Virus record (IMG/VR): IMGVR_UViG_3300030419_007002
Span: 32,001 to 96,000 of that record
Direction: 5' to 3' (one strand)
Length of the DNA: 64,000 nucleotides
From: a virus
The notes beneath the pieces are model-generated. The model did no database searches, had not been told where the DNA came from, and saw only the letters and a list, made by a program, of their open reading frames with translations. The position numbers and the translations under genes were made by a program. Shown piece after piece: positions 37,116 to 56,400 of this stretch. Positions within the stretch are counted from its first letter, which is position 1; every line of letters begins with the position of its first letter.

Positions 37116-39026
37116 ATGCCAAGAAAGAAAATATTATTACAAAGCGACTTCTCCCTCGCTAAGACCGGCTTTGGCAGGAATGCCAAAGCTATACTTACTT
37201 ATTTACATAATACAAATAAGTATGACCTAGTACATTATTGTTGCGGCCTGAATTGGTCAAACCCCCAGTTGACAAGAACCCCTTGGAAATCCATAGGCTG
37301 TCTACCCGATAACGAAGAAGAGACTAAAAATCTTAACAAAGACCCAAACGTTGCCAGATTAGCATCATACGGAGCGCACTATTTAGATAGAGTAATAGAG
37401 CAAGAAAAACCAGATGTTTATATAGCAGCCCAAGATATATGGGGCGTAGACTTCGCAATAGATAAGCCTTGGTTTGATAAAATAAACTCCGTAATTTGGA
37501 CCACTCTCGACTCTTTACCCATCTTACCCGCCGCGCTAGAAAAGGCTCCCAAAGTTAAGAACTATTGGATTTGGTCAAATTTTGCAACGAAAGCCATGAA
37601 CAGCTTAGGGCATTCTAATGTAAAAACCATGCACGGAGTTGTCGATGATAAATACTTTCGCAGACTAAAAGACTCAGAAAGGAAATCCTTAAGAAAGCAA
37701 AATAATTTACCGCAGGATATATTCATGGTCGGTTTTGTTTTTAGAAATCAACTCAGAAAATCTGTACCAAATTTACTAGAAGGATACAAAATCTGGAAAG
37801 ATAAATATTACGATAAAAAACGACCCACTGGATTACTTTTGCACACACATTTCTCAGAGGGGTGGAATATCCTTAAGCTCGCTGAGGAATATAAGATAGA
37901 TAAAAAAGAAATTTTTACGACTTACATCTGTAGAAATTGTTTAACTTATAATGTACAAAATTTTGTAGGACAAGATATAAAATGTAACTGTTGCGGAGAA
38001 GAAAAAGGTAAAATTACCACCAACGTCAGCGTAGGGGTTTCAGAAAAAGAGCTAAATGAGGTATATAATCTAATGGACGTTTACGCTCACCCCTTTACTT
38101 CCGGAGGACAAGAAATACCCATACAAGAGGCAAAGCTTACGGAGCTAATTACGCTAGTAACAGATTATAGCTGTGGTCAAGAGATGTGCGAAAAGGGGGC
38201 CGCATCCCTAGCCCTAGATTGGTCGGAGTACAGAGAGCACCAGACCGAATTTATAAAAGCATCCACGAAGCCTAATTCTATTGCAAAAAATATACATAAA
38301 GTATATAGCATGGGTCAAAAGAGGCTCAGAGAAATGGGCGAGCAAGCTCGCCAATGGACTCTAGACAATTATTCCCCCCAAAACGTAGGCTCACTTATAG
38401 AAAAAGAAATTGAAAATTTTGATTCTATAAAATATGATTTTCCCATCAAGGGCAAACCGAAAGATCCAAATGCGGAAATACCCAAGATAGATGATGATAA
38501 AGAATGGCTTATATATATGTATAAGCATATTCTAAACATGAGCGTAGACCAAACAGATGAAGGGCATCAATATTGGATGCAGGAAATTTCTAAAGGCAGA
38601 AAAAGGTCAGAGATAGAACAGTATTTCAGAAAGGTCGCGCAAGAAGAAGGGGATAAAAAATCTGTAGATTTTGAAAATCTTCTAGATAAAGAAGACAAGG
38701 GGAATCGGATGCTATATGTTATGCCAGAAAGTATAGGTGATGTTTTTCTCTCTACAAGTCTTTTTAAATCTTTAAAAAAACAATATCCAAAATATAATCT
38801 ATATGTTGCTACTAAAGAGGCAAACGCAGAAGTGCTAGACGGCAACCCATACGTACATAAAGTGATACCCTATGTCCAACAAATGGATAACCTTCTCTGG
38901 CTAGAGGGGCAGGGGGACCATAAAGGGTATTTTGAGGTTGCGTTCTTGCCCCACGTAGGAACACAAAGGATGTTTGATTACCAACACAACGCAAAAGATG
39001 AAATAGCTTTTGATTTAAAATATTGA
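37116..39026 (+). CDS. Multidomain glycosyltransferase: GT4 with CxxC insert + DUF4214-like + N-terminal half of GT9
   Basis: TGFGRNA, RNQLRKS, SGGQEIPIQEA; YKHILN..D..G..YW; ESIGDVFLST..LK..YP...NPYVHKVI. Confidence 0.75.
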   Translation: MPRKKILLQSDFSLAKTGFGRNAKAILTYLHNTNKYDLVHYCCGLNWSNPQLTRTPWKSIGCLPDNEEETKNLNKDPNVARLASYGAHYLDRVIEQEKPDVYIAAQDIWGVDFAIDKPWFDKINSVIWTTLDSLPILPAALEKAPKVKNYWIWSNFATKAMNSLGHSNVKTMHGVVDDKYFRRLKDSERKSLRKQNNLPQDIFMVGFVFRNQLRKSVPNLLEGYKIWKDKYYDKKRPTGLLLHTHFSEGWNILKLAEEYKIDKKEIFTTYICRNCLTYNVQNFVGQDIKCNCCGEEKGKITTNVSVGVSEKELNEVYNLMDVYAHPFTSGGQEIPIQEAKLTELITLVTDYSCGQEMCEKGAASLALDWSEYREHQTEFIKASTKPNSIAKNIHKVYSMGQKRLREMGEQARQWTLDNYSPQNVGSLIEKEIENFDSIKYDFPIKGKPKDPNAEIPKIDDDKEWLIYMYKHILNMSVDQTDEGHQYWMQEISKGRKRSEIEQYFRKVAQEEGDKKSVDFENLLDKEDKGNRMLYVMPESIGDVFLSTSLFKSLKKQYPKYNLYVATKEANAEVLDGNPYVHKVIPYVQQMDNLLWLEGQGDHKGYFEVAFLPHVGTQRMFDYQHNAKDEIAFDLKY

Positions 39027-39027
39027 C

Positions 39028-39675
39028 ATGAAAGTTTTAGTACCATTATTACTTAGGCCAAACGGCCCAGAAGTCTGGATTAAAAATGCAGAAAAAATTA
39101 AAAATAAATTAACATACGAAGACAAAGATGTTGTTATTTTCGACGAAGAGGTTTCGTCTTACCAAAGCAAATTTGCAGCAGAGGCTAACGCCAGAAATGC
39201 AGTGATAGACAAACACCTGAAGGATGAGCACACCCACGTCTTTTGGATAGATACTGATGTCGTAGAATTTCATGAGAACATAATAGAAATGCTTTCCACT
39301 ATTCCCGGAGCAAACCCACTAAAAGATATAGTAGCCCCGTTTGTTTTCTTAGAGGACAATGACGCTTGGCCTTTTAAAAGATTTTATGATATATCCTGCT
39401 TCATAGATAGTAACGGCGAGAATTATGATTATAAAGAACCCTATAACATGTGGGAAAAAGAACAACCCCTGCACCGATGCAAATGCGTAGGGACATGCTT
39501 CCTAATGCCAGCTAGTATATATAAGATGGGGGTAAGATATGATCCGTATGATGAAAGAAACGAACACATACCATTTTTTGAAGAAGCGAAAGAAAGGGGT
39601 TTCGGCATATGGTCAACCCCCTTGGTAGAAATACGCCACGCCTTTTTACCGAAATATGGAATAAACTTTAGATAA
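39028..39675 (+). CDS. GT-A glycosyltransferase (Anp1/GT2-like)
   Basis: ARN, WIDTDVV (DxD), DIVAP, FYD, VGTCFL, EH..F. Confidence 0.7.
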   Translation: MKVLVPLLLRPNGPEVWIKNAEKIKNKLTYEDKDVVIFDEEVSSYQSKFAAEANARNAVIDKHLKDEHTHVFWIDTDVVEFHENIIEMLSTIPGANPLKDIVAPFVFLEDNDAWPFKRFYDISCFIDSNGENYDYKEPYNMWEKEQPLHRCKCVGTCFLMPASIYKMGVRYDPYDERNEHIPFFEEAKERGFGIWSTPLVEIRHAFLPKYGINFR

Positions 39676-39676
39676 T

Positions 39677-40861
39677 ATGCATTTAGTAGAAAGATATGCA
39701 CTAGGTAGTGGGGCTAAAATAGACCAGCCTTATATTTTAGAAAAATTTTTCCCCCACGACATGAATAGATACATAACGCTTCACCCAAGAAGCAAATATG
39801 ATTCTAAGTGTTATGACTATTGGCAGGAAGTGGTTGACATCATACATCCAGAATTATCCAAGCACGGGATCGACATCTTACAAATAGGAGTAGAAGGAGA
39901 CCCCTTATTAAACCTATGCAAACACGCCGTAGGTGGAACAAGCATAGGGCAAACCGCATACATTCTTAAAGATTCGGAGCTTCATTTGGGTGCGGACAGC
40001 TTCCCTGTCCACGTAGCTTCTCATTATAACAGAAAAATAGTTGCGCTTTACTCTAACATTTATCCCAATCAAGCAAATCCATATTGGGGAAATAAAAAAG
40101 ATCAAATACTTCTAGAAGCAGACAGGGAAGGCAAAAAGCCTAGCTACGCAGCACAAGAAAACCCAAAAACAATCAATTCGATTAAGCCAGAAAACATTGC
40201 AGAGAAAGTCCTCTCGCTTTTAGGGCTAGAGTATTCTTATCCCTATCAAACCCTAACGCGGGGACCGAACTTTTTATCTAGAAATATTCAATCTGTTCCT
40301 AGGGGAGTTTTGGATATACAAGGTTTGGCTGTGGACTCGATTATAATGAGAATGGATTTACATTTTGATGAAAATGTATTAGCTAATCAATTGATGAGGA
40401 CTAAATGTTCTATATTAAGCAATAAGCCCATATCGTTAGATATATTTAAACAGTTTAAAGAAAAAATTAATCAATTCGTCTACGTAATAGATGAGAACCA
40501 TAACCCCTCGTTCATAGAAGATCTCATAAACACGGGGGCGGTTAGGCCGCTTCTCATATCTGAGATGAGTGCTGATAAGTTAAATAAGCTTAAAATTGAT
40601 TACATGGATCACAGCATAATAATGCCGAAATCTTTGCCCAAAGAAAAAGATATAGAAGAAATAAAAAAGCACGGAATGGATAATCTTTATTATAAATCAA
40701 ATAAATTTTTAATAGATAAAGGTCGCGTATATCCCAGCATAGCTGCATGGCAACAAGAAGAATCTATACCCTCATTAGTAAATACTCCTCAAAAAGTTAT
40801 CGACACAGATAATTTCTGGAAAGAAATACAAGATTATTACATTCTAAAGAAAAGCTCTTGA
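39677..40861 (+). CDS. C-terminal half of a GT9 (heptosyltransferase-like) fused to an unknown domain
   Basis: HLVERYA, ITLHP...K....WQEV, ILQIG, TS..QTA, LGADSFPVHVAS...IVALYS. Confidence 0.7.
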   Translation: MHLVERYALGSGAKIDQPYILEKFFPHDMNRYITLHPRSKYDSKCYDYWQEVVDIIHPELSKHGIDILQIGVEGDPLLNLCKHAVGGTSIGQTAYILKDSELHLGADSFPVHVASHYNRKIVALYSNIYPNQANPYWGNKKDQILLEADREGKKPSYAAQENPKTINSIKPENIAEKVLSLLGLEYSYPYQTLTRGPNFLSRNIQSVPRGVLDIQGLAVDSIIMRMDLHFDENVLANQLMRTKCSILSNKPISLDIFKQFKEKINQFVYVIDENHNPSFIEDLINTGAVRPLLISEMSADKLNKLKIDYMDHSIIMPKSLPKEKDIEEIKKHGMDNLYYKSNKFLIDKGRVYPSIAAWQQEESIPSLVNTPQKVIDTDNFWKEIQDYYILKKSS

Positions 40862-40891: not shown

Positions 40892-41635
40892 ATGCCGAAA
40901 AAGAAAGTGGGCTTTTCCCAAAAAGAAGAAGAAGATGTTAGATTTTCTCCGCCGAAAGTTTTTACTAGAAACGAATACGGCCTAGTAGAAGACGACGACA
41001 CAAAATATGTTTTCACTGACGAAGGCTTGATTGACTGGAGGAAAATGGTTAAGCCAGAGTACCTTGTTTCCAATAGGCAAAGGACAAAGGAGCTCGACGT
41101 AACAAAGTTAGAAGACAAGGACCTTCTGATTTTATTGGGTGGGATCAAGGAGCTAGCCCAGATAAGGGGTTATACAGATTTAACATATAATGTAGTTTCG
41201 CCTAGCGCAGATTATGTTATAGCTACCTGCACAATAACTTGGACTCCCAATTACGAAACAGAGGGAAGAACAGTAAAATTTTCAGCCATAGGAGATGCAT
41301 CCCCCGGAAACACTAAAAGTTTCGCAAGAAATTTTCTTGGCCCAATCGCAGAAAATAGAGCTTTTGTACGATGCGTAAGAAACTTCTTGAGAATTCACAT
41401 CGTAGGCTCAGATGAGATGGGTGATGTCAAAATGGGATCTGAACCCGTTCAGGAATCGGCGGCAGACCCCAAGGCACTTCTTAAATCTCTCATGAAAGAT
41501 AAGGGTATCACATTCGAAAACGTGAAATCCAAATTACAGAAAGAGTCTTATGATGGCGCAGAGAATTTTTCTGCTATAGAAGACATTCCGAACATTAAAA
41601 TATTCGAACTAATAGAAAGAATGAAGAAGGTTTAA
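40892..41635 (+). CDS. Putative single-strand annealing protein (Rad52/RecT superfamily-like)
   Basis: GG..ELA..RG, beta strands to AIGDA, IAENRAFVRCVRNFLRI...DEM. Confidence 0.5.
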   Translation: MPKKKVGFSQKEEEDVRFSPPKVFTRNEYGLVEDDDTKYVFTDEGLIDWRKMVKPEYLVSNRQRTKELDVTKLEDKDLLILLGGIKELAQIRGYTDLTYNVVSPSADYVIATCTITWTPNYETEGRTVKFSAIGDASPGNTKSFARNFLGPIAENRAFVRCVRNFLRIHIVGSDEMGDVKMGSEPVQESAADPKALLKSLMKDKGITFENVKSKLQKESYDGAENFSAIEDIPNIKIFELIERMKKV

Positions 41636-41961
41636 TCCTTCGGGTATTTTTCTTTCACTTGATTAATAAAATTTATTAATTCATTTAATTTCTCTGGTCG
41701 ACCCATGGCGTTTTCAGTTAAAGCTTCGAACTGGGCCTCTATAGGCCAGCTTTCCATTATGTCATTTTTTCTATTTTCTTGTACCTCCGTCAAGGAAAGT
41801 TGGTTTTGAAATTCTTCCTGAGACCAAATATCATTTAGCTCTGTCTCCGTCGGCTTGGGGATAGAATTATTTTCTGACCAATTAAAGTTCTCATATCCCT
41901 CCCCCTTTAAAGACCATTCATATTCTAAATATTTAGATTCTAATATTCTTAATAGATTCAT
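41632..41961 (-). CDS. Tail-fibre-associated / assembly chaperone-like protein
   Basis: EW...G..Y....W......KPTE.EL...R....P...Q....VK.KYPK; directly downstream of a fibre gene. Confidence 0.55.
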   Translation of the reverse strand: MNLLRILESKYLEYEWSLKGEGYENFNWSENNSIPKPTETELNDIWSQEEFQNQLSLTEVQENRKNDIMESWPIEAQFEALTENAMGRPEKLNELINFINQVKEKYPKD

Positions 41962-43817
41962 TCTAATTCCTCCCTGACCTCTTCTATAGTCATGTTAGAG
42001 TATGCCTTTCCGCCCAATATTGTACTGGGATTGTTCATGTAGTGCGTTCTGTTAAGATATACCGACGCATTTCGACTCTGCCTTCTACCAGCCCTTATGC
42101 TCCAAGTCTGCTCACCTAAAGAATCTACTATGTGAACGTGTCTCATTCTAACGATTTGCCCATACTCTCTGGCGTATACGTTATTTGACCACGCCCTCCT
42201 AGGCGTTGCTTCGTCATCTTTATATAAAGCTATTATGGCTTCAGAATTGCCACCCGCGCTCAGATTTAACTCTGCATCTATTATCAATGTATGCCCCGTT
42301 TGCACGGGGGATATAGATAGGCCTGTTATTTCGGTCCCCTGAGAGCTTTGAGGATTTTCATAATCAATAATTTCTGTCGTCGAAAATGTGTCATTCCATC
42401 TAACCCCAGTCATTCTAACATATTTACCCGTTACCCCAGCTATACCCGTCATTGGCCCTATGCCAGAGACGGTTAAATCAGATACCCATATTCCGTCTCC
42501 GGTTGCGGTTAGCAAGCCCAATACATGAAGATCTTGAAACGTTCCGGTCCCATGAAAGAATTTGTTTCCACTTACTTCTTGATTTCCAGTAGTTAAAACT
42601 ATTTTGTCGAAGAAATTTACTTTCTCCTCGGTTATTCCGCCATCTATTACGCTGAACGCCCCTATTTCATCTCCCCCTGCGCCAGTAAAATTTATCGTTT
42701 CTCCATCAACAAACACTCCAAGGTCCAGAGTGTCTCCCATATATACTTTTATATCTCCAGTTAATCCAGCGCCAGCATTTACGCTGAAGTAACCCGAGCC
42801 TGTTTCCAAAAATGTACTATACGCGACACCAGTCTCTAACAATATTCCTGTATCAACATTGACTGCTCCCCCAGAAATTATTATTCCACTTCCCTGAACT
42901 ACGTTAGCTACAACGCTTTGGTCTCCGCTGAAAACAAAATCATTGAGACCTGATCCACCACTTATGTTATGCTTAAGACCTAATACCTTAAAAGCGCCTA
43001 TAGCGTCCTCGCCCCCGCCAGTAAAGCCTATTGTTTCGCCATCTACATAAACGCCTAGGTCTAAAGTATCGCCCATATAAACCTTGGTGTCGCCAGTAAG
43101 TCCAGCTGCGGCATTGATGTTAAAGAAGGCACTTCCAGTGGTTAATAAATATCCTGTGTCTAAATTCACAGAGTCTTCAGTAACTATGAGCCCCGTTCCC
43201 GGGCTTAGATCTATTCTTCTGGAACTGCTTAGGTTTCCTCCCCCGACTAAGCCACTACCGGCAATCATCTCTACATATAGGGGGTTAAAGCCAGTTAGCC
43301 CGCTTAAGTTTAAGCCTCTATATTTTACCCTACTAGTGTCACCGTCATCATTTATTGCTATAGTCAAAAATCCAGTCGTTTCTCCATCATAGTCTACATC
43401 CCTTATATCCAGAGAACCACTTATATCTATATTACTAAGCAAAGTGGTGTCAGGTTTTGTAACAGTAAAACAGCAAGCAGTATCTTGACCCCTGTCAGAC
43501 TCAACCCCAAAAACCTGAGCGTTTCCGATACCCTTTATCTTTAAGGTGTCCTGAGAACCTATATGAGATCTTAGCTCGGGTACTTCCCCAGATAGCCCGT
43601 AGGCATAACCACCCGTTGAAGCATAACCAAATTCTTCGGAGTTTGCTCCGCTAATTGCATCAAAGTAATAAACATCGCCAAATTCATCTTCAAATCTTAA
43701 ACCGGTTACATACTCTAGACTTTGACCAGTTATTAAAATATGAGAACCGGTAGGGCCCATGGAGGGTATAATTCCGTCGAGCCTTATATCTGGTACAAAT
43801 GTTAATCCTTCACCCAT
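41958..43817 (-). CDS. Tail fibre / virion appendage protein
   Basis: N-terminal IPT-like segment, AG.GL.G beta repeats, TTGNQEVSGNKFF fibre motif, C-terminal head ITGLSISP...LNR...S.MTIEEV. Confidence 0.7.
   Translation of the reverse strand: MGEGLTFVPDIRLDGIIPSMGPTGSHILITGQSLEYVTGLRFEDEFGDVYYFDAISGANSEEFGYASTGGYAYGLSGEVPELRSHIGSQDTLKIKGIGNAQVFGVESDRGQDTACCFTVTKPDTTLLSNIDISGSLDIRDVDYDGETTGFLTIAINDDGDTSRVKYRGLNLSGLTGFNPLYVEMIAGSGLVGGGNLSSSRRIDLSPGTGLIVTEDSVNLDTGYLLTTGSAFFNINAAAGLTGDTKVYMGDTLDLGVYVDGETIGFTGGGEDAIGAFKVLGLKHNISGGSGLNDFVFSGDQSVVANVVQGSGIIISGGAVNVDTGILLETGVAYSTFLETGSGYFSVNAGAGLTGDIKVYMGDTLDLGVFVDGETINFTGAGGDEIGAFSVIDGGITEEKVNFFDKIVLTTGNQEVSGNKFFHGTGTFQDLHVLGLLTATGDGIWVSDLTVSGIGPMTGIAGVTGKYVRMTGVRWNDTFSTTEIIDYENPQSSQGTEITGLSISPVQTGHTLIIDAELNLSAGGNSEAIIALYKDDEATPRRAWSNNVYAREYGQIVRMRHVHIVDSLGEQTWSIRAGRRQSRNASVYLNRTHYMNNPSTILGGKAYSNMTIEEVREELE
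42648..43140 (-). repeat. Two diverged ~155-bp copies inside the fibre gene (about 42648-42803 and 42984-43140)
   Basis: Both encode NA.AGLTGD.KVYMGDTLDLGV.VDGETI.FTG.G.D.IGAF.V. Confidence 0.85.
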
Positions 43818-43837
43818 GTTATTTTATTTCCTCTGAT

Positions 43838-45775
43838 TTAGTCATGATAATCTAGTAACGTTAGCGTTGCATTACCAGTAGTAATTCCTGTGCACGGGTT
43901 AACGCCTATGTAAGCTATATAGTCATGATTTATATTACAATTGAATGGATTTTGCGTTATCACTCCACTTACCCATTCTCCAGTGTTTATCAAGCATGTG
44001 GCACTAACTCCTTGTATTTTTACCCCAGTAACGTTATGGAAAAATCTTCCACTTATACCTAAGAGCGCAGTAGCGCTTACGGAATTAGAAGTTAAACCGC
44101 TAACCTCTGGCCTTCTTCCAGATATCTCCATCAAATCCCCAGTCAAATTTCCAACTAAGTCGTGCATATCCGAAGTCATAAATCTAGAAGAAAAAGATTC
44201 TATTTTAAATATTTTTCCTTCATAAACTGAATTCAGCCTTGATGGTTCGTAATCATTACTTATTATTAAGCTGTCAGGCACTAAGAACGGAAAGCCTTCA
44301 CCTAAGAATGAATTATTTATAATTCCCGTTATTATACTCACACCCGTCCTCACCCCAGAGAGATTTTCTCCAGTTATACTAGAATGATCTATTCCTAAAT
44401 CGTAACCAAAATAATCAGTTAATCCTATATCTAATTTTTTATTAAGCAGGTGATCAATCACAATATTACCTTCGGTACCATATTTCATTGTGGTCGTCAC
44501 TCGGTTATTATGAGATATAAACCTAATCCCCGTATCTCCCCTACTAGAGGACATTCCAGTTATACCTATCAATGGGGCAGCTTGGTAGGCATTTAAGCCA
44601 GTTATCCTAAAGCTTTGTCCGACGATTAAATTTTCTGTTTCTATTCCTGATATAGATGGAAGCACAGTAAAAATCTGATCAGATTCTTCGAAAATTTCAT
44701 TTCCGCTGATGGTAATAGGTGAATTAATTATTTCTCTCGGTACCCTTATGTAAGCCCCCGTTCCATCTACAAAAGTTTTTTCTTTAGCGGGTATATACTC
44801 TGCAGATTCCCCGCTCCAAGCAGATCTAAATAAGAATTCAACCCCAGTTAATTGAGTCCCCGATATGTTTATTAAATCGTTATATTTGCCAGAAGAGGGC
44901 TCTATTATATTTATACCAGTATAAACAGAATGAAGCTCAGTCGGCGATAAAGTACTTTCAGCTATTTGTCCACCGGTAATATTTATCAATTTAAATTTTT
45001 CTTTCTCTTTAATATTTGGCGGTATATTGAAAGACAAACCAGTTGTGCCTACTCCGGTAAATAACAATGAAGAGAGGGGCCTATTTCCAGAAACGGTGGA
45101 CTGAACAATATAAGGATTACTTAACACTACGCTCGGTACCCTAGACCCCGTAAATTCTAACTTGTCTATTTTATGAAGAGAAATACCAGATAAATCAACC
45201 CTAGTACCCGGAAATCCAGACAAAGGAGAAAAGCCTTTTACTTCAGTGTCAGGAACTCTTACTTCAAAATTTCCAGTTTGGCTTACTCCCGACTGACCGC
45301 TCAAGGTAGTGACTAACCCCCCCGTAGCATAAACGAATATTGGTCCAGAATTAGATTCATTAGGAACAGTAAACCTTATACCCGTTTCTCCATCTACGGA
45401 AAAATTATTAGAAAATGTCTCTGCTATTTGGACTCCAGTTATGTTAACAAAATTTTCTCCGCTTATTAATACATCTTCCCCCCAATAAGCCCCAGTCGCT
45501 CTATCGAAACCAGAGATTTGTGGTTTATCTATGAACCTAAGGCCCGTACCGGATGCATAGTTTACTCCATTGTATAAAACAAATGTATTATGTTTTTCTA
45601 GACCATCGGGAATACGAAAACTTACAAAATTATGTGCGCTAGTAAAAGAACCACTGACTATGTCTGCCCGATTACCGCTTGTGCTATTAAAAAATATAGC
45701 CGTTTCAGGGGTATCATATATCCCCGAACCGCTAAGCGATAAAACGTCTCCTGCTATTCCACTTTTAAAAGCCAT
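43838..45775 (-). CDS. IPT/TIG Ig-like repeat virion protein, SG/TG-rich
   Basis: Repeated P.ISG..P..G..G..V.ISG.N...ITGV...F.VP units. Confidence 0.7.
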   Translation of the reverse strand: MAFKSGIAGDVLSLSGSGIYDTPETAIFFNSTSGNRADIVSGSFTSAHNFVSFRIPDGLEKHNTFVLYNGVNYASGTGLRFIDKPQISGFDRATGAYWGEDVLISGENFVNITGVQIAETFSNNFSVDGETGIRFTVPNESNSGPIFVYATGGLVTTLSGQSGVSQTGNFEVRVPDTEVKGFSPLSGFPGTRVDLSGISLHKIDKLEFTGSRVPSVVLSNPYIVQSTVSGNRPLSSLLFTGVGTTGLSFNIPPNIKEKEKFKLINITGGQIAESTLSPTELHSVYTGINIIEPSSGKYNDLINISGTQLTGVEFLFRSAWSGESAEYIPAKEKTFVDGTGAYIRVPREIINSPITISGNEIFEESDQIFTVLPSISGIETENLIVGQSFRITGLNAYQAAPLIGITGMSSSRGDTGIRFISHNNRVTTTMKYGTEGNIVIDHLLNKKLDIGLTDYFGYDLGIDHSSITGENLSGVRTGVSIITGIINNSFLGEGFPFLVPDSLIISNDYEPSRLNSVYEGKIFKIESFSSRFMTSDMHDLVGNLTGDLMEISGRRPEVSGLTSNSVSATALLGISGRFFHNVTGVKIQGVSATCLINTGEWVSGVITQNPFNCNINHDYIAYIGVNPCTGITTGNATLTLLDYHD

Positions 45776-45776
45776 A

Positions 45777-47417
45777 TTAATTAAATCCTATTTCCCCCGC
45801 TCCTCCGCCTTGGTTTATTGGTTTTTTCATAACAAAGACTGAGTTTTCCCAAGTCGCGTCTCCTATGGGTGTTTGAACCATTATAGAATAAAGCCCAGCG
45901 CCCGGATCTGGAGAGCTATCATGCGGGAAGCTAGCTTCCGCGGGAAGATCGAAAGAGACTACGTCTCCGCCTTCTTCGTCTCCCCCGATGAAGGTTCCCT
46001 CCCCGCCGTAAGGATTAGAAGCCTCTCCTTCGTAAGTTATGACTTCGCTTCCTATTAATTTTATGCCAGTTGCAATACCTAAATTTTTTCCACTTAACAC
46101 AATCCTACTACCGCCCCGATAAGAGTCTGAGGGCTTAACGTTTATTGTGCCTTTGTTATATATTTCCGGTAAACCCGGATTAACTATGAATATACCCGTA
46201 GAAAAATAAGATCCTCTTCCCGCGTTTTCAGATTTTTTGATATAAACTGGTCCGCTTTTCGCCCCCAAGGGTATGGAACCAGTTATTGTTGTGTTATTTA
46301 TTTTGTTAAATTGAGAATAAACCTCGCTCCTATCATTCGAAGTAAAATAAACAGATAGCCCACTGGGGTCCAATATCCTAAAGTATCCACTCCCTCCGTA
46401 CCCAGTGTTTTTTACATCATAATAATATAATTTATCCGGAGCATCATCGTAAAGAGTTAGTTGCGCATAAGGTTGCCACGAGATCCCCGTATGGGAATAC
46501 CCAGTCACACCAGCGATGCCGTGTTGAGAAAAACCAGAGTAATCATACAAACCAGAAAAAACTCCAGTAGACCCAGTGATTGCGTGTGCACCGTCTACCC
46601 TTTCTGAAACCGCAAATGCATTACCCGAGTTTGAGATATGCATGGTACTAAAATAGTATGTATGATTTCTAAACAAGGTAATTATCGGGCAGCCATCGGC
46701 AATGCCCGTACTATATCCACTGCGTTGAATATAATATTTATTACCTACCCCAGAGGATTCGCCCTGATTAACACGAATTTCATATAGATTTCCAGAATCA
46801 GAAAAATCAGAAAATAATTCATCGAAAAAATATTGTCCATATATACCGACAGAATTACCAGTGTCTCCACTAGTTAAACTAAATCCTGTTATTTTAACTT
46901 CTGGAATAAAAAATTGATCATGGTATCCCGTTACGCCAGACTGTCCGAATAAAGAAATTTTACCATATGTATTTCCAGAGGGTATAGTCAACGTTATTCC
47001 CGTATTTGAATCGACAGTTAAATCGCAATTTAAATTGTTTATGGTAGCCCCAGTTATCCCAGAAAAACAATTACCCGTAACAGAAACCGTTTCTCCAGAT
47101 ATACCAAATATAGGAGCAAAAGAATTGATCCTAGGCGCAGGCACAAATTTGTCGATAGTATAACCACTAACGCCGGTGGAAAAACCAGAGGCCCCGCTTA
47201 TGTCCCCTGACGCGTAGCTAACCAAATTGTCAGATACGAGCCAAATGTTATCCCAAGCAGCGTTTTCCGGAACCGTAGTCCTTATTAAATTCTTGTCTAT
47301 TATTTGAAAATCAGATTCAGCAGAAGAAAATAAAACACGCTCTACGGGTAACAAATAATCTCCAGATATAGATATCTGATCACCTATGCTGCCGCTAATT
47401 TCCCCTAAAGTAATCAT
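45777..47417 (-). CDS. IPT/TIG Ig-like repeat virion protein with a cupredoxin-like insert, SG/TG-rich
   Basis: PRINSFAPIFGISGETVSVTG..., ITGSIPLGAKSGPV; insert PIITLFRNHTYYF...DAPDKLYYY. Confidence 0.7.
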   Translation of the reverse strand: MITLGEISGSIGDQISISGDYLLPVERVLFSSAESDFQIIDKNLIRTTVPENAAWDNIWLVSDNLVSYASGDISGASGFSTGVSGYTIDKFVPAPRINSFAPIFGISGETVSVTGNCFSGITGATINNLNCDLTVDSNTGITLTIPSGNTYGKISLFGQSGVTGYHDQFFIPEVKITGFSLTSGDTGNSVGIYGQYFFDELFSDFSDSGNLYEIRVNQGESSGVGNKYYIQRSGYSTGIADGCPIITLFRNHTYYFSTMHISNSGNAFAVSERVDGAHAITGSTGVFSGLYDYSGFSQHGIAGVTGYSHTGISWQPYAQLTLYDDAPDKLYYYDVKNTGYGGSGYFRILDPSGLSVYFTSNDRSEVYSQFNKINNTTITGSIPLGAKSGPVYIKKSENAGRGSYFSTGIFIVNPGLPEIYNKGTINVKPSDSYRGGSRIVLSGKNLGIATGIKLIGSEVITYEGEASNPYGGEGTFIGGDEEGGDVVSFDLPAEASFPHDSSPDPGAGLYSIMVQTPIGDATWENSVFVMKKPINQGGGAGEIGFN

Positions 47418-48631
47418 GATATTTCTCTTTGCTTTACGTAGAGAATTTTAGAATTAGATGGCCCGCCTATACCGTAAGCCCTGACCAATGCACGAGCATC
47501 AGCGGTCCAACCACGACTACGGCGGTGAATATCTTCTGGAATTTTTACATATTGTATTTCAGATTCTTTTACGGCCCCGCTTATATCTGCATTAGAACCA
47601 TTCATTTCTATTTCAGAGACAGTATCTAAACCAATACCATGTATAGTAATATATTCTCCCGGGTATACAAAATCTTTCGTTCCCGTGACAGAAAAATAAG
47701 TTATGCTAGGCGCTCTACCCACTGTAGACTGAGAAATATTTAATCTACCCCCTACTTTACTATTTGGCTCTACCGAGTAACTCTTGTCTGTCAACTTACC
47801 AGATATTAAAAACTCATCATGTAAATTACCGTTAAAGTCATGGGTCTTTAAGCACAGGTTGACATGTTCACCAGAGTAAGGAATTTTTATCCCTGTGTCA
47901 TTAGTATCTATAGTAAGATTTATATTCTTTTCTCCGAACCTTATTTCTTTAGGGTATATTTCTCCCACCCTTAAGCATGGTTCCACTGAGGATTCGAAGG
48001 AATAATCTAGGCCAAGGATATTGTCAGTAGTAATGCCGATGGGCTCGTCATAATAAAAATTATCTATAGTTAAGTCATCGTATTTTAGAAACTCTACTTC
48101 TTTTGGTAAAACATTATTTTCGCCATCTAAAACAACTGTCGATTCTTCTATTCCATGAAAAAAAGATATACTTGCTTTAACATCAATAGGGGTATTAGGT
48201 CTAGCGCTTAAAGAGTAAGATGTTAGATATCCACTTCTTATTATGTTTTCACCTATTTTGAAGGTCATGTTCGGAAACCCATCAAAATTTAAATTCTTAT
48301 ATAAAGGAAACGATGCATCGTCACTATTACCAATTTTTTCTTTTTCATTTAAAAAATAATATTTTTTTAATGGATCCTGTCCAGTCAGAAGATAGCTTAA
48401 TTGTATACTTCCCCTAGGGCTAGTATTAGCTAGCGGTTCTTCTGGACTCCTTCTTTCAGTTAAATAAGAATTACTTAAGGAAACGCTATTAGAAATTTCT
48501 ACAGAAGTTGCATATATGTGCTCTAACGGATAATCACCCTGCTGCTCCCAGCGGTCAATATCCCACCAAGGTTGATGCAAAGATGGCGCAAAAAATACCT
48601 TTACATCTTTAGATTGTAAATATTTACCCAT
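47414..48631 (-). CDS. Putative tail structural protein with C-terminal IPT/TIG domain
   Basis: Beta-rich duplicated core; C-terminal APSITYF....PGEYITIHG.GL..V; heads the structural gene run. Confidence 0.5.
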   Translation of the reverse strand: MGKYLQSKDVKVFFAPSLHQPWWDIDRWEQQGDYPLEHIYATSVEISNSVSLSNSYLTERRSPEEPLANTSPRGSIQLSYLLTGQDPLKKYYFLNEKEKIGNSDDASFPLYKNLNFDGFPNMTFKIGENIIRSGYLTSYSLSARPNTPIDVKASISFFHGIEESTVVLDGENNVLPKEVEFLKYDDLTIDNFYYDEPIGITTDNILGLDYSFESSVEPCLRVGEIYPKEIRFGEKNINLTIDTNDTGIKIPYSGEHVNLCLKTHDFNGNLHDEFLISGKLTDKSYSVEPNSKVGGRLNISQSTVGRAPSITYFSVTGTKDFVYPGEYITIHGIGLDTVSEIEMNGSNADISGAVKESEIQYVKIPEDIHRRSRGWTADARALVRAYGIGGPSNSKILYVKQREIS

Positions 48632-48661: not shown

Positions 48662-49486
48662 CTATAGCTTGTATACTTCCTTGCTAAGAAGCTTATATTC
48701 TGCCCATAATTTATCTCTAACCCCCGGGTCCTCGTTAAAAGAAAGGCTCCCCTTTCTCCTAAAGTAAGTATAAGTTTCTACACCGTTAGCTGGACAAGCA
48801 AATATGCCAGCCTTATGCATCTCTTCCCACAGCAGAAGATCTTCATGAGCCATTAAACCTTCATGAAATAATTTTCCGTCCTCTGGTATAAGGGATTCGT
48901 GCATGAGAGTTGCCCAAGGGCCGAACCTTTTATTCATCACGTTTTTTTTTGCTTGGTGAGTAGTCCTAATCCATTCTTTTGGGGTTTCGGCCTCTATAGT
49001 GTAGTCTCCTACTACAAATTTTTTATTATGTTTTTTAGCGAAACTTATTAATCCCCTAGCTTTTCCATCGTGAACCTCGTCATCTGCATCGCAAAGCAAT
49101 ATAGCTGGATAATCTTTTCTATAATGATTTATTTCTTTAATTATTCTATTTTTTGCCTGTGCGGCGCTCTCCGCTTTGCTAAAATAATGGGATTCAAAAA
49201 CGTCTGCACTACAATATTTTTTATTATGATCTATTCTATCTTGAGTTTCGTCTGTCGAGCCGTCATTTGCCAACAGAAAAACCCAATTTAAGCCACTCAT
49301 GGACCGTTCTACGCTTTCCAAAGCTCTGGTCAACCACTCGTTAGCGTTATGGGCAGACATCACCACCTGAAAGCCTGTATTTTTCCATAGTTGTTCGGGG
49401 GCATTTTTATTTAAGTTTATAAATTTTTTATGCCTGTCTATTAGAGTTTCTTCGGGTTTTCTAGGCTTCTTCAGTACATGAGCCAT
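48662..49486 (-). CDS. GT2 glycosyltransferase
   Basis: VVMSAHNA, NDGSTDET, AKN, CDADD, HEDL, YFRR. Confidence 0.85.
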   Translation of the reverse strand: MAHVLKKPRKPEETLIDRHKKFINLNKNAPEQLWKNTGFQVVMSAHNANEWLTRALESVERSMSGLNWVFLLANDGSTDETQDRIDHNKKYCSADVFESHYFSKAESAAQAKNRIIKEINHYRKDYPAILLCDADDEVHDGKARGLISFAKKHNKKFVVGDYTIEAETPKEWIRTTHQAKKNVMNKRFGPWATLMHESLIPEDGKLFHEGLMAHEDLLLWEEMHKAGIFACPANGVETYTYFRRKGSLSFNEDPGVRDKLWAEYKLLSKEVYKL

Positions 49487-50713: not shown

Positions 50714-52018
50714 ATGAACAAACAAGAGGCAAAAGTTGCATCCAAAAGAATACGCGAGGAATCTTCTAAGCTTAACCACGCACCCTTGGTTACTCTTTTC
50801 GAGATAGATCTTTCAGAAATAGCTATTGACGAAACCCTATCTAGAAATTTAAGGTTAGCATCGGCCACTCAAGCTTTAGCTGCTGTGCCGGATATGATAT
50901 TTCGTTTTCATAATAATATGAGTTTACTAAAACCAACGGTGGGAGCAGGAGCAGTAATCGCTCCCCCCATATGGTTTGGGGGAGTAAAATACGTAGCCGC
51001 ACCGATACAGGCGTCCGGCTTTGAGGTCAGCACAAAAGGTACATTACCTAGGCCAAAGTTGAGCTTGACAGTAAACACAGAAGGGGTAGAATTTATTTCT
51101 ATTTTAAAAAACCTAATGAAAGATTTGGGGGATTTATCGAACGCTAAGGTCACAAGGATCAGAACTTTTTCAAAATATTTAGACTACCAAAATTTTTATG
51201 TCACAAATGGGGATGGAAGCAAGGCTACCCCAGAAAGAACTATTGTAGAAAGAATTCCAGATGACTTGACTCCTGACCCCAATGCTACATTGCCGAAGGA
51301 CATTTATTATATAGACAGAAAATCTATGGAAGATAAACAGTCTCTTGAATTTGAATTGTCTTCTATTTTAGAGCTAGACGGCATGGTTCTACCCTCTAGG
51401 CTCATGGCTCAGAGAAGGTGTACATTTAATTACAGAGGCGAAGGTTGTTGTTACGAATACGGACAAGATAATAATGATAACCAATGCTTTAGCGTAGCAG
51501 ATTGGAAAAAAATCCATAGATCAACGGGGGCGTCTCATGAATTAAATCTCCCAAATCTCGCCCCGCCAATGGCTAATGAAAAAGACGAACTGCTAGGTGG
51601 GAGTAAGGGGGTTGTGCGGAATAAAAAAACAGACAGCGGCGGAAATGATATCAGCGATGATTTTTATGTTTCAAATAGTAACACCAACAAGCCAAACTGC
51701 TGGAAAAAGAACACGGTGTATCCGCCCAAGAGTGCAGTTTATATAAATGTAGCTGGAATTAATTATTACTATGTAGCAAAATTTTGGGACTGTGATGCCG
51801 ATGGTAACAACTGCGGCAACACAAGCGTCCCATCGAACGAACCCCCGCCTAATACTAAATACTGGGAACCCGACGTTTGCTCCAAAACGATAAAAGGATG
51901 TAAAATAAGATGGAATGCAGGTACGCCAGCAGGTATGTCATCTAGTAATCCATTTAAAGGGAGCGCGGGCGTTCATTTACCCTTTGGGGGTTGGCCCGGA
52001 ATAAATAGAAAAGCATAA
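50714..52018 (+). CDS. Minor tail protein, lambda gpL-like (Fe-S Cys)
   Basis: LFEIDL, PIQASGFE..G.LPRPKL, RIRT..KYLD, EFELSS, C..NYRG..C, D.CSK...GC..R, LPFGGWPG. Confidence 0.92.
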   Translation: MNKQEAKVASKRIREESSKLNHAPLVTLFEIDLSEIAIDETLSRNLRLASATQALAAVPDMIFRFHNNMSLLKPTVGAGAVIAPPIWFGGVKYVAAPIQASGFEVSTKGTLPRPKLSLTVNTEGVEFISILKNLMKDLGDLSNAKVTRIRTFSKYLDYQNFYVTNGDGSKATPERTIVERIPDDLTPDPNATLPKDIYYIDRKSMEDKQSLEFELSSILELDGMVLPSRLMAQRRCTFNYRGEGCCYEYGQDNNDNQCFSVADWKKIHRSTGASHELNLPNLAPPMANEKDELLGGSKGVVRNKKTDSGGNDISDDFYVSNSNTNKPNCWKKNTVYPPKSAVYINVAGINYYYVAKFWDCDADGNNCGNTSVPSNEPPPNTKYWEPDVCSKTIKGCKIRWNAGTPAGMSSSNPFKGSAGVHLPFGGWPGINRKA

Positions 52019-53406: not shown

Positions 53407-56400
53407 ATGGCAGAAGCACACGAAGGCGTAAAAGTTAATGGAGTAAAAAGCTATTCTGTGACAAGAATAGATACTCTTGATCTTCTTTCCGAAGGCCCGA
53501 TAGAAGGCCTAGTAAGTGGAGAGCACACCTTCAAATCAGAAGAAGGAAAAATTGGATACACTCCCGACACCAGCCTAGGCGTAAGTGGTTATAAATATCA
53601 ATCATGGGGAGGTGGCACATTAAACCCGAAAGGGGTATTGAGGTCTATATACTGGAACCAAATGCCAATTGTAGATACGCAGGGTCTAGCAAACTTTCAA
53701 GATTTTACATGCGTAGATACGGAAGGATATCCTAATGGTAACCTAGATTCCGGTGGGGGATCCAGACCAGAAACTACCAGAACCACCGCTATAAACGAAA
53801 GGCTAAGAGGACCTACTATAAGAGACGGAAAAAAAACTGGGGCAGTTTTCCCCAAGTATTATAGGATTCTCAATCCAGAGAGCGATAAAGCTCAAGTTAA
53901 TATAAAATTAAATAGCCTCTTTAGAATAGAAAGAGATGAGCCGCATGAATTTGGAGAACAAAAAGATACCTCTGTTCAGATAGCAATTTACTTTAAACCA
54001 ATATTTTCAGACGGAACAGCTGAAGGCGTAAGCCACTATGCCCCAACAGAAGGCGCGGTAAAAACAATCGAAGGCAGAGTAACTCACGGCTTTATTAGAA
54101 GCTATGAGATAACTTTACAGTATAAAGATTCTAATGGAAATGATTTAACAGATAATAATAACTTTTTGGGGTGGGAAATAAAAATAGAAAGACTCACGGG
54201 TGAATCTGAGACCGGTGACGTAAGGGACATCACAACTGTAGATTCAATAACAGAAATATATGGATTAAAATTTGCCTATCCAAACTCAGCGATGGTTTCA
54301 TCTAAATTTCAAGGCGAATACTTTAGCTCCATACCAGAAAGAGCATTCGAAGCAAAAGGTATAAAAGTAAAAATACCCAGTAATTATGATCCAATAATGA
54401 AAAATTACGCCACCCCTCCAACCGCAAATGAAGCGGTTTGGAACGGGCTTTTCAAAGGGGAAATTACGGCTGGAGACGGCAACCATGAATTGCACTATAC
54501 AGATAATCCAGCTTGGATTTTTTATGACCTTATAACTAACAGAAGATACGGATTGGGAAAAACTGTAAGCCCGAACCTTATAGATAAATGGACTTTATAT
54601 GAGATAGCAAGGTATTGCGACGAAATGGTTCCCGATGGCTTCGGTGGTTTTGAACCGAGGTTTGTATGCAATATGTATATAACCACCAGAGCAGAAGCGC
54701 ATAAAGTTGTTAATGATATAGCATCTATTTTTAGGGGAATGGTATATTATGCTGGAGGGAGCATATTCGCAGTGCAGGATTCTCCAAAAGAACCTGTTTT
54801 CCAATTTACAAATGCGAATGTAGAAGACGGAAACTTCAATTACCAAAACAGTAGCACGAAAGTAAGGCACACCTCAGCAGTCATAAGATATAATGATAAA
54901 ACTAATTTCTATAGACCGGCCATAGAGTATGTAGAAGACGTAGACGGAATAAGAAAGTATGGTATAAGAGAAACTGAAATGTCAGCATTCGGCTGCACAA
55001 GCAGGGGTCAAGCTTCTAGATTGGGTAGATGGCTTTTGTTTACAGAAAATCTAGAAACAGAGAGCGTCACTTTTACAGCAGGGCTAGAGTCTACATTTTT
55101 AAAACCCGGAGACGTATTCGCTGTTTCTGATTCTAACAGAAATTCGAACAGGAGAGCCGGTAGACTAGCAGCAACACATGTCGGAACACATTCAGACGGA
55201 AGTGTTAGAACTACTTTAGTTTTTGACTCAAAAAAAGGAGATATAGATTATACAATAGACCCTAATAGAATTTATAAATTATCTGTACTTACCCCCAGTT
55301 ATCACTACGACCCCTCTATGTACGACGTAACTACTAGTGAAGATATACCAGACATAAGAAGGTCACAACTGCAATCTTGTCATTTTACGGGTAGCCAAAT
55401 CGTTGCGGGAAATACGATTTATAGTACTGATTATTTTAATAATGACGCAATACAATTATACACAGGCTTTAACACAGTAGATTATAAGCTAGATAAAGAC
55501 TGTATTTGGATGATAGAGCCGGAGGGGACGAACTACAATGTTTCTGATTTTGAAGAGTCTTTCACCACTGCTAGTAAATACAGAGTAGTTTCTATAAATG
55601 AAGTAGAACCTAATAAGTTCAGCATCGCTGGCGTAGAATATAAAGATCAAAAATACTCATCGGTAGAGAAGGGTATAAGCTTTGACGACACAAACGTAGT
55701 TTTTACTCCGGGGCACCCCGGAGGAATAACAACCGTCGAACATACGCCTTGTCAAGATTGTCATACCAAAATAATAAGATACACGATAACACATTGTAGC
55801 TCTAATGCAAATCACACATGCAGAAAAGGATTAAATACATATTACGTATATTCAAAATACGCGGGAAACGGTAGCCAAGCTGAGAAATGGAAAGCCAGAG
55901 ATTTCCTTACAAGATACAGCCTTTCTCAATTAGGGGCAGCTAGCGAGGATTCAGATATTACAGATGACAGTTTTATACCAGACGCTAAATATCTCATAGG
56001 TACTCCCGCTTGGAATGTACAACAAGGTAATCACCATGGAAGTTTTGTTCCAAGCCAAGAGGGGCATTACCAATTTAAAGCATTTGCGGTTAATGCTCAT
56101 GGCACACATTCTTCTAGAAGTGCAAATACATCAAGGCACGTAGATAATGTGCGCCCAGTCGAAGACGTTACAATTAATTCGTTAGCCTTTAGCGAAGATA
56201 CTGACACAAATGCAGCTGGACAAGTAGTAGCAGATTGTGCGAAAAAAGAACCGCCGAATGACCCAACTAATGGATTAGGCTTTTCTTGGCTTGCGCAAAT
56301 AGCAGATGGTTCATCTTTTAGCAGTAGCCTTTCGTATAGAATAACATTTAGAGATGTGTCCTCCAATAATACCCCTAATGGAAATATATTTTATGAAATA

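Follow-up and report, generated by a model that had tools for sequence, protein, structure and literature searches.

Ser/Thr-Gly enrichment in three predicted tail-fibre proteins of an uncultured marine phage

Tandem IPT/TIG modules (PF01833) occur in plexins, MET, and bacterial and viral surface proteins. In plexins, MET, RON, and fibrocystin, conserved Thr/Ser on the second strand of the folded IPT module is O-mannosylated by TMEM260, for which the sequon P-x6-P-x3-P-x2-G-G-x3-T has been published (bioRxiv 10.64898/2026.09.21.753134; PMC10214176). The soluble transferase TibC hyper-modifies Ser in the repeated β-structure of TibA, and one mapped site, the heptosylated Ser-313, lies in the sequence N-S-G-G (PMC4358343). 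Among phages, according to Freeman et al. 2023 as cited in PMC12619734, glycosyltransferases (GTs) encoded by mycobacteriophages glycosylate the C-termini of capsid and tail-tube subunits in the virion. Here we describe three adjacent phage genes whose products have the fold and repeat consensus of IPT/TIG arrays in common and carry a large excess of the dipeptides Ser-Gly and Thr-Gly (together, [ST]G).

The window, i.e., the whole stretch of DNA that was analyzed (64,000 nt), spans positions 32,001-96,000 of the 104-kb IMG/VR record IMGVR_UViG_3300030419_007002. The record is that of an uncultured marine phage from a clade of large uncultured marine siphophages. No cultured relatives were found in a phage collection searched by DNA, with the 645-aa fibre protein, and with a GT9-like protein of the window, and a search of the collection with gpJ returned distant lambda-type J proteins only. 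Searches of viral contigs with the 645-aa protein (P0001) and protein P0076 gave no matches, nor did a PDB sequence search with the fibre proteins.

The fibre operon and the fold of its products

The genes considered here are as follows.

48662-49486, minus strand: soluble GT2-family glycosyltransferase, head of the operon
47414-48631, minus strand: conserved 405-aa protein containing a single IPT/TIG module, the operon's first structural gene
45777-47417, minus strand: 546-aa fibre protein (P0002), a non-IPT middle with IPT-like modules on either side
43838-45775, minus strand: 645-aa fibre protein (P0001), six IPT/Ig-like β-sandwich modules
41958-43817, minus strand: 619-aa receptor-binding fibre (P0003), starting with an IPT-like module at the N-terminus, followed by a shaft of repeats, a BppL_N-like stem, and a Pgp3/TNF-like head at the C-terminus
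41632-41961, minus strand: 109-aa protein of phrog_9114 (function unknown), last gene of the operon
37116-40861, plus strand: 636-aa protein, Anp1-like GT, and GT9-like protein, the first and last of which (37116-39026 and 39677-40861) form a split heptosyltransferase-like pair; core block of the clade, given for context only
53407-57897: gpJ, 1496 aa

The AF2 model of the 645-aa protein (mean pLDDT 76.5) is an all-β string. Its top Foldseek matches in the PDB are plexin IPT arrays (plexin A1, E 2e-12) and Ig strings, and in BFVD an IPT/TIG protein of Harvfovirus (E 5e-17) and phage virion proteins, so that by AF2 and Foldseek the protein has the tandem Ig-like β-sandwiches of IPT/TIG proteins. 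A repeat HMM built from its residues 84-172 aligned 1676 modules of 150 relatives, ordinary giant IPT proteins included, which places all of them under one shared consensus, P-x-I-x-x-[FI]-x-P ... G ... [VI]-x-I-[ST]-G-x-N-F. This HMM gave six envelopes in the 645-aa protein (residues 2-83, 84-172, 178-286, 287-374, 372-442, and 555-614), four IPT-like envelopes in the 546-aa protein, and a single one in the 619-aa protein (residues 12-67). The 546-aa and 645-aa proteins are paralogues (BLASTP 1e-13). Unlike recognized IPT/TIG proteins, the three fibres fall below the Pfam TIG model (PF01833), which gave no match to them even at E up to 10; a homologue with 31% identity (P0007) is matched in four stretches (E 1.9e-8). 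A resemblance seen by eye between the middle of the 546-aa protein and one domain of a giant collagen-like protein (related locus L017) was not supported by BLASTP.

In the 619-aa protein, PF05475 matches residues 492-616 (E 1.2e-5, above cut-off) and PF18338 residues 404-425 (E 4.6e-4, below cut-off). It thereby recalls the stem-neck-head receptor-binding proteins of lactococcal siphophages (BppL/RBP), with weak BppL_N-like and neck-like matches and a head of trimeric type, but differs from them in having a Pgp3/TNF-like head and an IPT module at the N-terminus. The three genes are best explained as encoding distal tail appendages that are predicted to consist mainly of tandem IPT/Ig-like β-sandwich modules, the third with a trimeric receptor-binding head.

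Of the flanking genes, that for the 109-aa protein is conserved with the fibres and has orthologues in two related loci (L002 and L047), and that for the 405-aa protein adjoins tail genes in all relatives, fibre-less ones included. The 405-aa protein has one IPT envelope (residues 307-372, same HMM), and in the atlas it lies nearest to viral TIG proteins (score 0.95), with clusters that combine a tail tube with TIG scoring only 0.82-0.83. It is possibly a tail-tube-type or attachment protein, the tail-tube match being a lead only.

Size and specificity of the bias

The initial annotation had put Ser-Gly plus Thr-Gly at about 48, 37, and 37 in the 645-, 546-, and 619-aa proteins, against roughly ten in gpJ, and the reverse order in the 645-aa protein at about nine. 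Our recount gave exactly these fibre counts, nine [ST]G in gpJ, and nine reversed pairs. Expected numbers come from 1000 composition-keeping shuffles per protein.

645-aa ORF (43838-45775, minus strand): SG 24, TG 24, [ST]G 48 (7.4 per 100 aa); expected 15.0, z 9.9; G[ST] 9
546-aa ORF (45777-47417, minus strand): SG 21, TG 16, [ST]G 37; expected 14.7, z 6.9; G[ST] 9
619-aa ORF (41958-43817, minus strand): SG 13, TG 24, [ST]G 37; expected 16.0, z 6.1; G[ST] 12

The claim that composition alone fails to explain the bias therefore stands: z is 6-10 after shuffling and G[ST] is slightly depleted in the three proteins. In gpJ, [ST]G itself is depleted (9 versus 21.5 expected, z -3.1). None of the remaining ORFs of the window exceeds z 2.4, and the rest of the 104-kb record holds nothing comparable, the next highest z being ∼3 on 3 and 11 sites. 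Ser or Thr precedes 50% of the 244 glycines pooled from the three fibres; for 35 other window ORFs the share is 11%. Because the dipeptide is encoded by at least 19 different hexamers in each protein, the bias is one of the protein, and a DNA-level motif or codon bias was ruled out.

The sites are usually preceded by Ile, Leu, or Val at -1 and have Ile, Val, Tyr, Phe, or Asn at +2. Thr-Gly (64 sites) and Ser-Gly (58 sites) are about equally common. Proteoglycan xylosylation takes place at Ser-Gly with acidic flanks, on Ser only; the analogy that had been drawn with it fails, since Thr-Gly is equally enriched here and the flanks are hydrophobic, not acidic. Neither N-x-[ST] nor the Bacteroidetes sequon D-[ST]-[AILVMT] is enriched, except N-x-[ST]-G, which is a by-product. 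Spacing between sites is irregular, from 2 to 62 residues, and shows no three-residue period, which rules out collagen-like periodicity; collagen-like fibres have Gly at every third residue, and true examples exist in other phages.

A proposed building motif of the fibre repeats

With moderate confidence, we read the [hydrophobic]-[Ser/Thr]-Gly excess as mainly a structural motif from which the fibre repeats are built. A hydroxyl residue would stand next to a core hydrophobic residue and be followed by a Gly that ends, kinks, or starts a short β-strand; the hydroxyl may cap the turn, and the extra glycines may serve the mechanics of the fold, e.g., by making long arrays flexible or shielding their edge strands.

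With a repeat HMM, the positions of the sites within the repeat were compared between two sets, one taken from 57 [ST]G-rich relatives (405 modules) and the other from 85 ordinary IPT proteins (1168 modules). At columns 11-12 (63% of the [ST]G-rich versus 52% of the ordinary modules), 22-23 (70% versus 56%), and 60-61 (27% versus 82%), [ST]G is common to both sets. These three motif positions, which the window fibres and ordinary arrays have in common, are, as judged from the alignment, general IPT consensus also found in cellular IPT proteins. At four others [ST]G is specific to the lineage, namely columns 5-6 (45% versus 13%), 30-31 (30% versus 8%), 35-36 (24% versus 2%), and 48-49 (34% versus 0%). 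Thr/Ser is already present in 68-77% of ordinary modules at columns 5, 30, and 48. At three or four further positions, then, Ser/Thr is generic to IPT and the lineage has put Gly in place of Ser, Ala, or Gln. Because Gly follows a conserved Thr/Ser at these extra positions, the composition-corrected bias of the window fibres (O/E 2.3-3.2) is two to three times that of ordinary IPT arrays (1.0-1.6), and they hold 6-7.4 sites per 100 aa versus ∼2-5.

About half of the excess falls on IPT-repeat positions, and in the 645-aa and 546-aa proteins the IPT modules hold about two thirds of the sites; the 546-aa protein has 8.4 sites per 100 aa inside its modules and 5.1 outside. Between orthologues, Ser/Thr before Gly is kept in 88% of cases versus 48% for other Ser/Thr (Fisher 5e-6), or 86% versus 60% in the 546-aa protein; the Gly and the hydroxyl residue before it are equally conserved. 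Placement of the motif at strand boundaries was dropped, as the [ST]G glycines near boundaries in the 645-aa model (29 of 48 versus 24.2 expected, P ∼0.1) are not significantly in excess.

Across the related loci, the bias travels with fibre fold families and not with the neighboring GT2 gene. One related locus encodes a 3321-aa protein whose 378 sites belong to a periodic structural repeat, the heptad xxY[IVA]TG, and further [ST]G-rich fibres encoded at this locus in relatives are collagen-like, with G-P-[ST]. No [ST]G bias is seen in T4 gp34-37, lambda J, or lambda Stf (O/E 0.7-1.45), so the excess is no general property of fibres.

Several points count against the structural reading, the T4 and lambda values and the strand-boundary result among them. 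In the 619-aa protein, 33 of the 37 sites lie outside the IPT module, versus 14.6 expected there, and the non-IPT parts are enriched 2.0-2.9 fold, so that the IPT consensus leaves part of the excess unexplained. The low O/E of ordinary IPT proteins argues in the same direction, as does the 405-aa protein, which has only 7 [ST]G and an IPT module free of enrichment. Several unrelated fibre folds of one clade share the bias, which was likewise counted on this side.

Glycosyltransferases and other readings of the motif

It is possible, if somewhat unlikely, that [I/L/V]-[S/T]-G, at least at exposed positions, is the acceptor motif of one or more soluble phage GTs that would decorate the fibres, assembled or still folding, in the cytoplasm, as TibC and Aah do with autotransporter repeats. 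Several GT-like genes and nucleotide-sugar enzymes are encoded in the window. All of the GT-like proteins, GT2 included, are free of membrane segments, and neither the initiating lipid-carrier transferases (Bac_transf, Glycos_transf_4) nor Wzx was found in the record or in a complete 178-kb relative. The strong conservation of the hydroxyl residue, the spread of the bias across fold types within the clade together with its absence from T4 and lambda fibres, and the TibA precedent are further points in favor.

The GT2 gene reported in the initial annotation is present as described (PF00535, E 1.1e-14), but its proposed tie to the bias did not hold up, there being no correlation across ∼40 related phage loci. 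GT2 is absent from L038-L041 and L048, yet the IPT fibres there keep an [ST]G O/E of 2.7-3.7, and GT2-linked non-IPT fibres in L044 and L067 have no bias (O/E 0.77-0.93). What does hold, and favors acceptor function, is that GT2 homologues are confined to loci with fibre genes: they adjoin them in the window, L002/L042, L003, L047, L044/45, and L067-69 and are absent from all 10 fibre-less loci. No clade relatives without any glycosyltransferase exist for comparison.

The likeness to the E. coli pairs TibC-TibA and Aah-AIDA-I lies in the GT9-like protein and in weakly HldE-like kinase/adenylyltransferase genes. The GT9-like protein (39677-40861) matches PF01075 at 29.9 bits, and the 636-aa protein has an N-terminal TIGR02195 match at residues 532-585. 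The AF2 model of the GT9-like protein (pLDDT 90) matches GT9 3tov, WaaF, WaaC, and TibC over half the protein in Foldseek; LPS heptosyltransferases rank ahead of TibC, and one domain only is covered. For ADP-heptose supply, rfaE domain I reached 128 bits against a cut-off of 345, and domain II 78 bits against one of 181. A search at E up to 1 for the autotransporter O-heptosyltransferase family TIGR04414 (TibC/Aah) gave nothing in the 104-kb record, two partial relatives, or the complete relative. Unlike the TibC/Aah pairing, the GT9-like block and the sugar genes are core genes of the clade; the block is also kept by G004, the complete relative, and by loci that lack fibres, independently of the [ST]G fibres. 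The substrates differ too: the TibA and AIDA-I repeats are β-helical and TibC takes Ser only (PMC4358343), whereas the window fibres are Ig-like and use Thr as often as Ser. Many [ST]G sites, moreover, lie within strands, between core hydrophobic residues (AF2 secondary structure of the 645-aa protein), which also speaks against an acceptor role. As for TMEM260, aligning its sequon to the repeat consensus appears to put the acceptor two positions ahead of the [ST]G in I-[ST]-G. The enzyme is an ER-lumen membrane protein, and none like it was seen here. Mycobacteriophage glycans sit at C-termini, whereas the candidate sites here, known from sequence, are spread through the fibre proteins.

A broader version, which we hold to be unlikely, would make [hydrophobic]-[Ser/Thr]-Gly a fold-independent acceptor code across IPT, heptad-solenoid, and collagen-like fibres, read by soluble phage GTs; the distal appendages would then carry a coat of glycans made by the phage, possibly sulfated or containing heptose.

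It is very improbable that the motif supplies stable Ser/Thr-Gly turns in place of deamidation-prone Asn-Gly, or reflects other anti-aggregation negative design, in long-lived extracellular fibres. The three window proteins do have a single Asn-Gly versus 14 expected (∼8.4 after correction for the Ser/Thr share), Asn-Gly is the most enriched xG pair of ordinary IPT proteins (O/E 1.69), and repeat column 35-36 is N-G in ordinary IPT and often S-G here. However, this would cover at most one or two repeat positions, Asp-Gly is not depleted, and relatives lack the deficit (L002, 7 versus 9.1 expected; L003, 17 versus 14.1), so this reading was dropped. That the excess is a by-product of amino-acid composition, a DNA-level motif, or collagen-like Gly-X-Y repeats is hardly credible: some [ST]G-rich phage proteins in related loci really are collagen-like, but the shuffles, the depleted G[ST], the spread over hexamers, and the irregular spacing all stand against it.

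If [hydrophobic]-[Ser/Thr]-Gly accepts sugars, no earlier sequon would exist for the glycosylation of tail fibres by phage enzymes, and the motif would explain the large sugar arsenals of these marine phages, with a bearing on host recognition, particle stability, and the sticking of particles to marine organic matter. If it is structural, as we favor, it would allow a large, unannotated family of phage fibre modules to be recognized by a compact signature in the sequence; the family comprises at least 57 clusters at 50% identity whose sampled members all lack a functional name. The motif would then also be an example of a lineage-wide redesign of Ig-like repeats.

Ser-Gly and Thr-Gly bias in three adjacent fibre proteins

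The source phage is an uncultured marine virus known from a 104-kb IMG/VR record (completeness estimate 60%), of which the window is a part. A minus-strand operon diverges from its tail-tip genes, which are lambda-type.

Tail-tip genes and divergent operon
50714-52018, tail-tip gene L, lambda-type
Tail-tip genes K and I, lambda-type, listed between L and J
53407-57897, tail-tip gene J, lambda-type
48662-49486, minus, glycosyltransferase gene (GT2), first in the operon
47414-48631, minus, 405-aa protein, second
45777-47417, minus, 546-aa fibre protein, third
43838-45775, minus, 645-aa fibre protein, fourth
41958-43817, minus, 619-aa fibre protein, fifth
41632-41961, minus, 109-aa protein, sixth

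The initial annotation had counted Ser-Gly and Thr-Gly dipeptides ([ST]G) by hand in the fibre proteins, and its numbers (37, 48, and 37) were exact on recount. The claimed excess stands against 1000 composition-preserving shuffles, with 48 sites in the 645-aa protein (15.0 expected, z 9.9), 37 in the 546-aa protein (14.7 expected, z 6.9), and 37 in the 619-aa protein (16.0 expected, z 6.1), while the reversed G[ST] is slightly depleted (9, 9, and 12, respectively). The contrast drawn with gpJ, said to have roughly ten sites, is borne out by 9 sites against 21.5 expected. No remaining ORF in the window exceeds z 2.4, and no further ORF in the whole 104-kb record comes near the bias of the three proteins. 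Half of their glycines are preceded by Ser or Thr, as compared to 11% in 35 other window ORFs. The dipeptide is encoded by at least 19 distinct hexamers in each protein, which places the bias at the protein rather than the DNA level, and its sequence context is [I/L/V]-[S/T]-G-[I/V/Y/F/N]. Observed/expected ratios (O/E) of 0.7-1.45 for T4 gp34-37, lambda J, and lambda Stf indicate that the bias is not a general fibre property. Taken together, the [ST]G bias of the three fibre proteins is real and unusual.

Fold, repeat positions, and conservation

Pfam and PHROGs gave no match for the 645-aa or the 546-aa protein. The 619-aa protein, a receptor-binding fibre, ends in a C-terminal Pgp3/TNF-like domain; its matches to BppL_N and neck models are weak. 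An AF2 model of the 645-aa protein (19 aligned homologues, pLDDT 76.5) shows a chain of about six modules, all beta. In Foldseek searches its best PDB matches are IPT arrays of plexins along with other Ig strings, and its best BFVD matches an IPT/TIG protein plus virion proteins of phages; in a homologue 31% identical, four stretches match Pfam TIG. The IPT parts of the three proteins are paralogous to each other; by a repeat HMM, the 645-aa protein has six IPT-like modules, the 546-aa protein four, and the 619-aa protein one.

An exhaustive phmmer search yielded 534 relatives. Among the best 150, O/E falls into two modes: 57 proteins reach at least 2, and 85 ordinary giant IPT proteins lie at 1.0-1.6. 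Sampled members of the former group (10 clusters) are all from metagenomes or viromes, and their contigs reach 175-190 kb. One HMM was used to align 405 modules of the [ST]G-rich group and 1168 ordinary modules.

[ST]G frequency at repeat columns, rich versus ordinary modules
11-12: 63% versus 52%, common IPT consensus
22-23: 70% versus 56%, common IPT consensus
60-61: 27% versus 82%, common IPT consensus
5-6: 45% versus 13%, lineage-specific
30-31: 30% versus 8%, lineage-specific
35-36: 24% versus 2%, lineage-specific
48-49: 34% versus 0%, lineage-specific

Ordinary modules have Thr or Ser at columns 5, 30, and 48 in 68-77% of cases, followed by Ser, Ala, or Gln; therefore, the hydroxyl is fold-generic and the Gly is a lineage gain. 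The fold accounts for the excess only in part. The non-IPT parts of the fibre proteins are enriched 2.0-2.9 fold (33 [ST]G against 14.6 expected outside the IPT module of the 619-aa protein), and the IPT module of the adjoining 405-aa protein lacks the enrichment. In the AF2 model, [ST]G glycines are not significantly closer to strand boundaries than random positions.

Between orthologues at 53-57% identity, Ser/Thr is retained before Gly at 88% versus 48% elsewhere in the 645-aa protein (Fisher 5e-6), 86% versus 60% in the 546-aa protein (P 0.007), and 73% versus 59% in the 619-aa protein (not significant), and Ser and Thr exchange freely at aligned sites. Of the 48 sites of the 645-aa protein, about 15 persist in at least 60% of distant relatives, and lowering the bar to half raises this to about 20; the remainder occur only in the close lineage. 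The best-supported reading, to which we give about an even chance, is a structural one, with [ST]G as a building motif of the repeats in these fibres.

The fibre locus and its glycosyltransferases across relatives

We compared 38 loci around a conserved 247-aa neighbour gene together with related phage loci L002, L003, and L038-L041. The core block of the clade (PolIII - 190 aa - 636 aa - GT9-like - 247 aa) also occurs in ten loci without any fibre genes, where only the 405-aa gene adjoins the tail genes. GT2 homologues are restricted to fibre-bearing loci (window, L002/L042, L003, L047, L044/45, and L067-69). However, the proposed link between GT2 and [ST]G fails in both directions: L044/45 and L067-69 carry GT2 with non-IPT fibres at O/E of ~0.5-0.9 (one 205-aa ORF, 1.6 from two sites), and L038-41 and L048 have IPT fibres without GT2, still at 2.7-3.7.

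The stretch from the 247-aa gene to the tail genes (L042-L079) is a cassette site and hypervariable. About ten relatives carry nothing there; in the rest it is occupied by IPT fibres, by giant non-IPT fibres (1300-3300 aa), or by other proteins. Some fibre-less relatives have a longer gpJ (1669-1717 aa). Other [ST]G-rich fibre types occupy this locus in other relatives; in L050 (10675-20640, minus) it encodes a 3321-aa protein of xxY[IVA]TG heptads with 378 [ST]G (11.4 per 100 aa), probably a beta-solenoid fibre. The complete relative G004 (178 kb) has the sugar arsenal and no IPT fibres; among its proteins, only collagen-like G-P-[ST] fibres are rich in [ST]G. A cluster of four genes for such fibres precedes a GT1-type glycosyltransferase gene, which lies on the other strand (164571-170387, L088), a further instance of fibre/glycosyltransferase adjacency. 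Within the divergent operon, the 405-aa gene, with one TIG module, is the only member that stays constant throughout the clade. Its product may be a tail tube or fibre-attachment protein, since its low-score language-model neighbours include tail-tube-plus-TIG clusters.

Candidate acceptors of the sugar arsenal

That [ST]G is an acceptor for the phage glycosyltransferases is possible but, in our judgment, unlikely. Precedents are TibC, which heptosylates Ser within N-S-G-G (PMC4358343), and a dedicated animal O-mannosyltransferase acting on IPT modules (PMC10214176; bioRxiv 10.64898/2026.09.21.753134). Against such a role, the bias is not tied to GT2 among the loci compared, and no TibC/Aah-family enzyme was found in the 104-kb record or three relatives. 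The GT9-like protein has a donor domain of heptosyltransferase type; among the protein's matches, LPS enzymes rank above TibC. Judging from domain matches, a GT9 heptosyltransferase-like enzyme appears to be split over two genes (window 37116-40861, plus; around 8700-9960 in L044-L078): the match to the N-terminal domain of heptosyltransferase II lies at the C-terminus of the 636-aa protein, and that to the GT9 donor domain in the N-terminal half of a 394-aa protein. The two ORFs adjoin or overlap by 1-14 nt in most relatives, and an Anp1-like glycosyltransferase gene (39028-39675) lies between them in the window and L002/L042. The suggested analogy to proteoglycan Ser-Gly is a poor fit because Thr is as frequent and hydrophobic residues flank the motif. 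As a cause of the bias, avoidance of Asn-Gly was weighed and largely rejected.

Two absences favour [ST]G as an acceptor: all the glycosyltransferase-like proteins and the sulfotransferase, encoded at 4-49486 of the window, have no membrane segments, and neither initiating phosphoglycosyl transferase nor Wzx families are encoded in this record or G004. The sugar arsenal therefore seems to act on a soluble or host-supplied acceptor.
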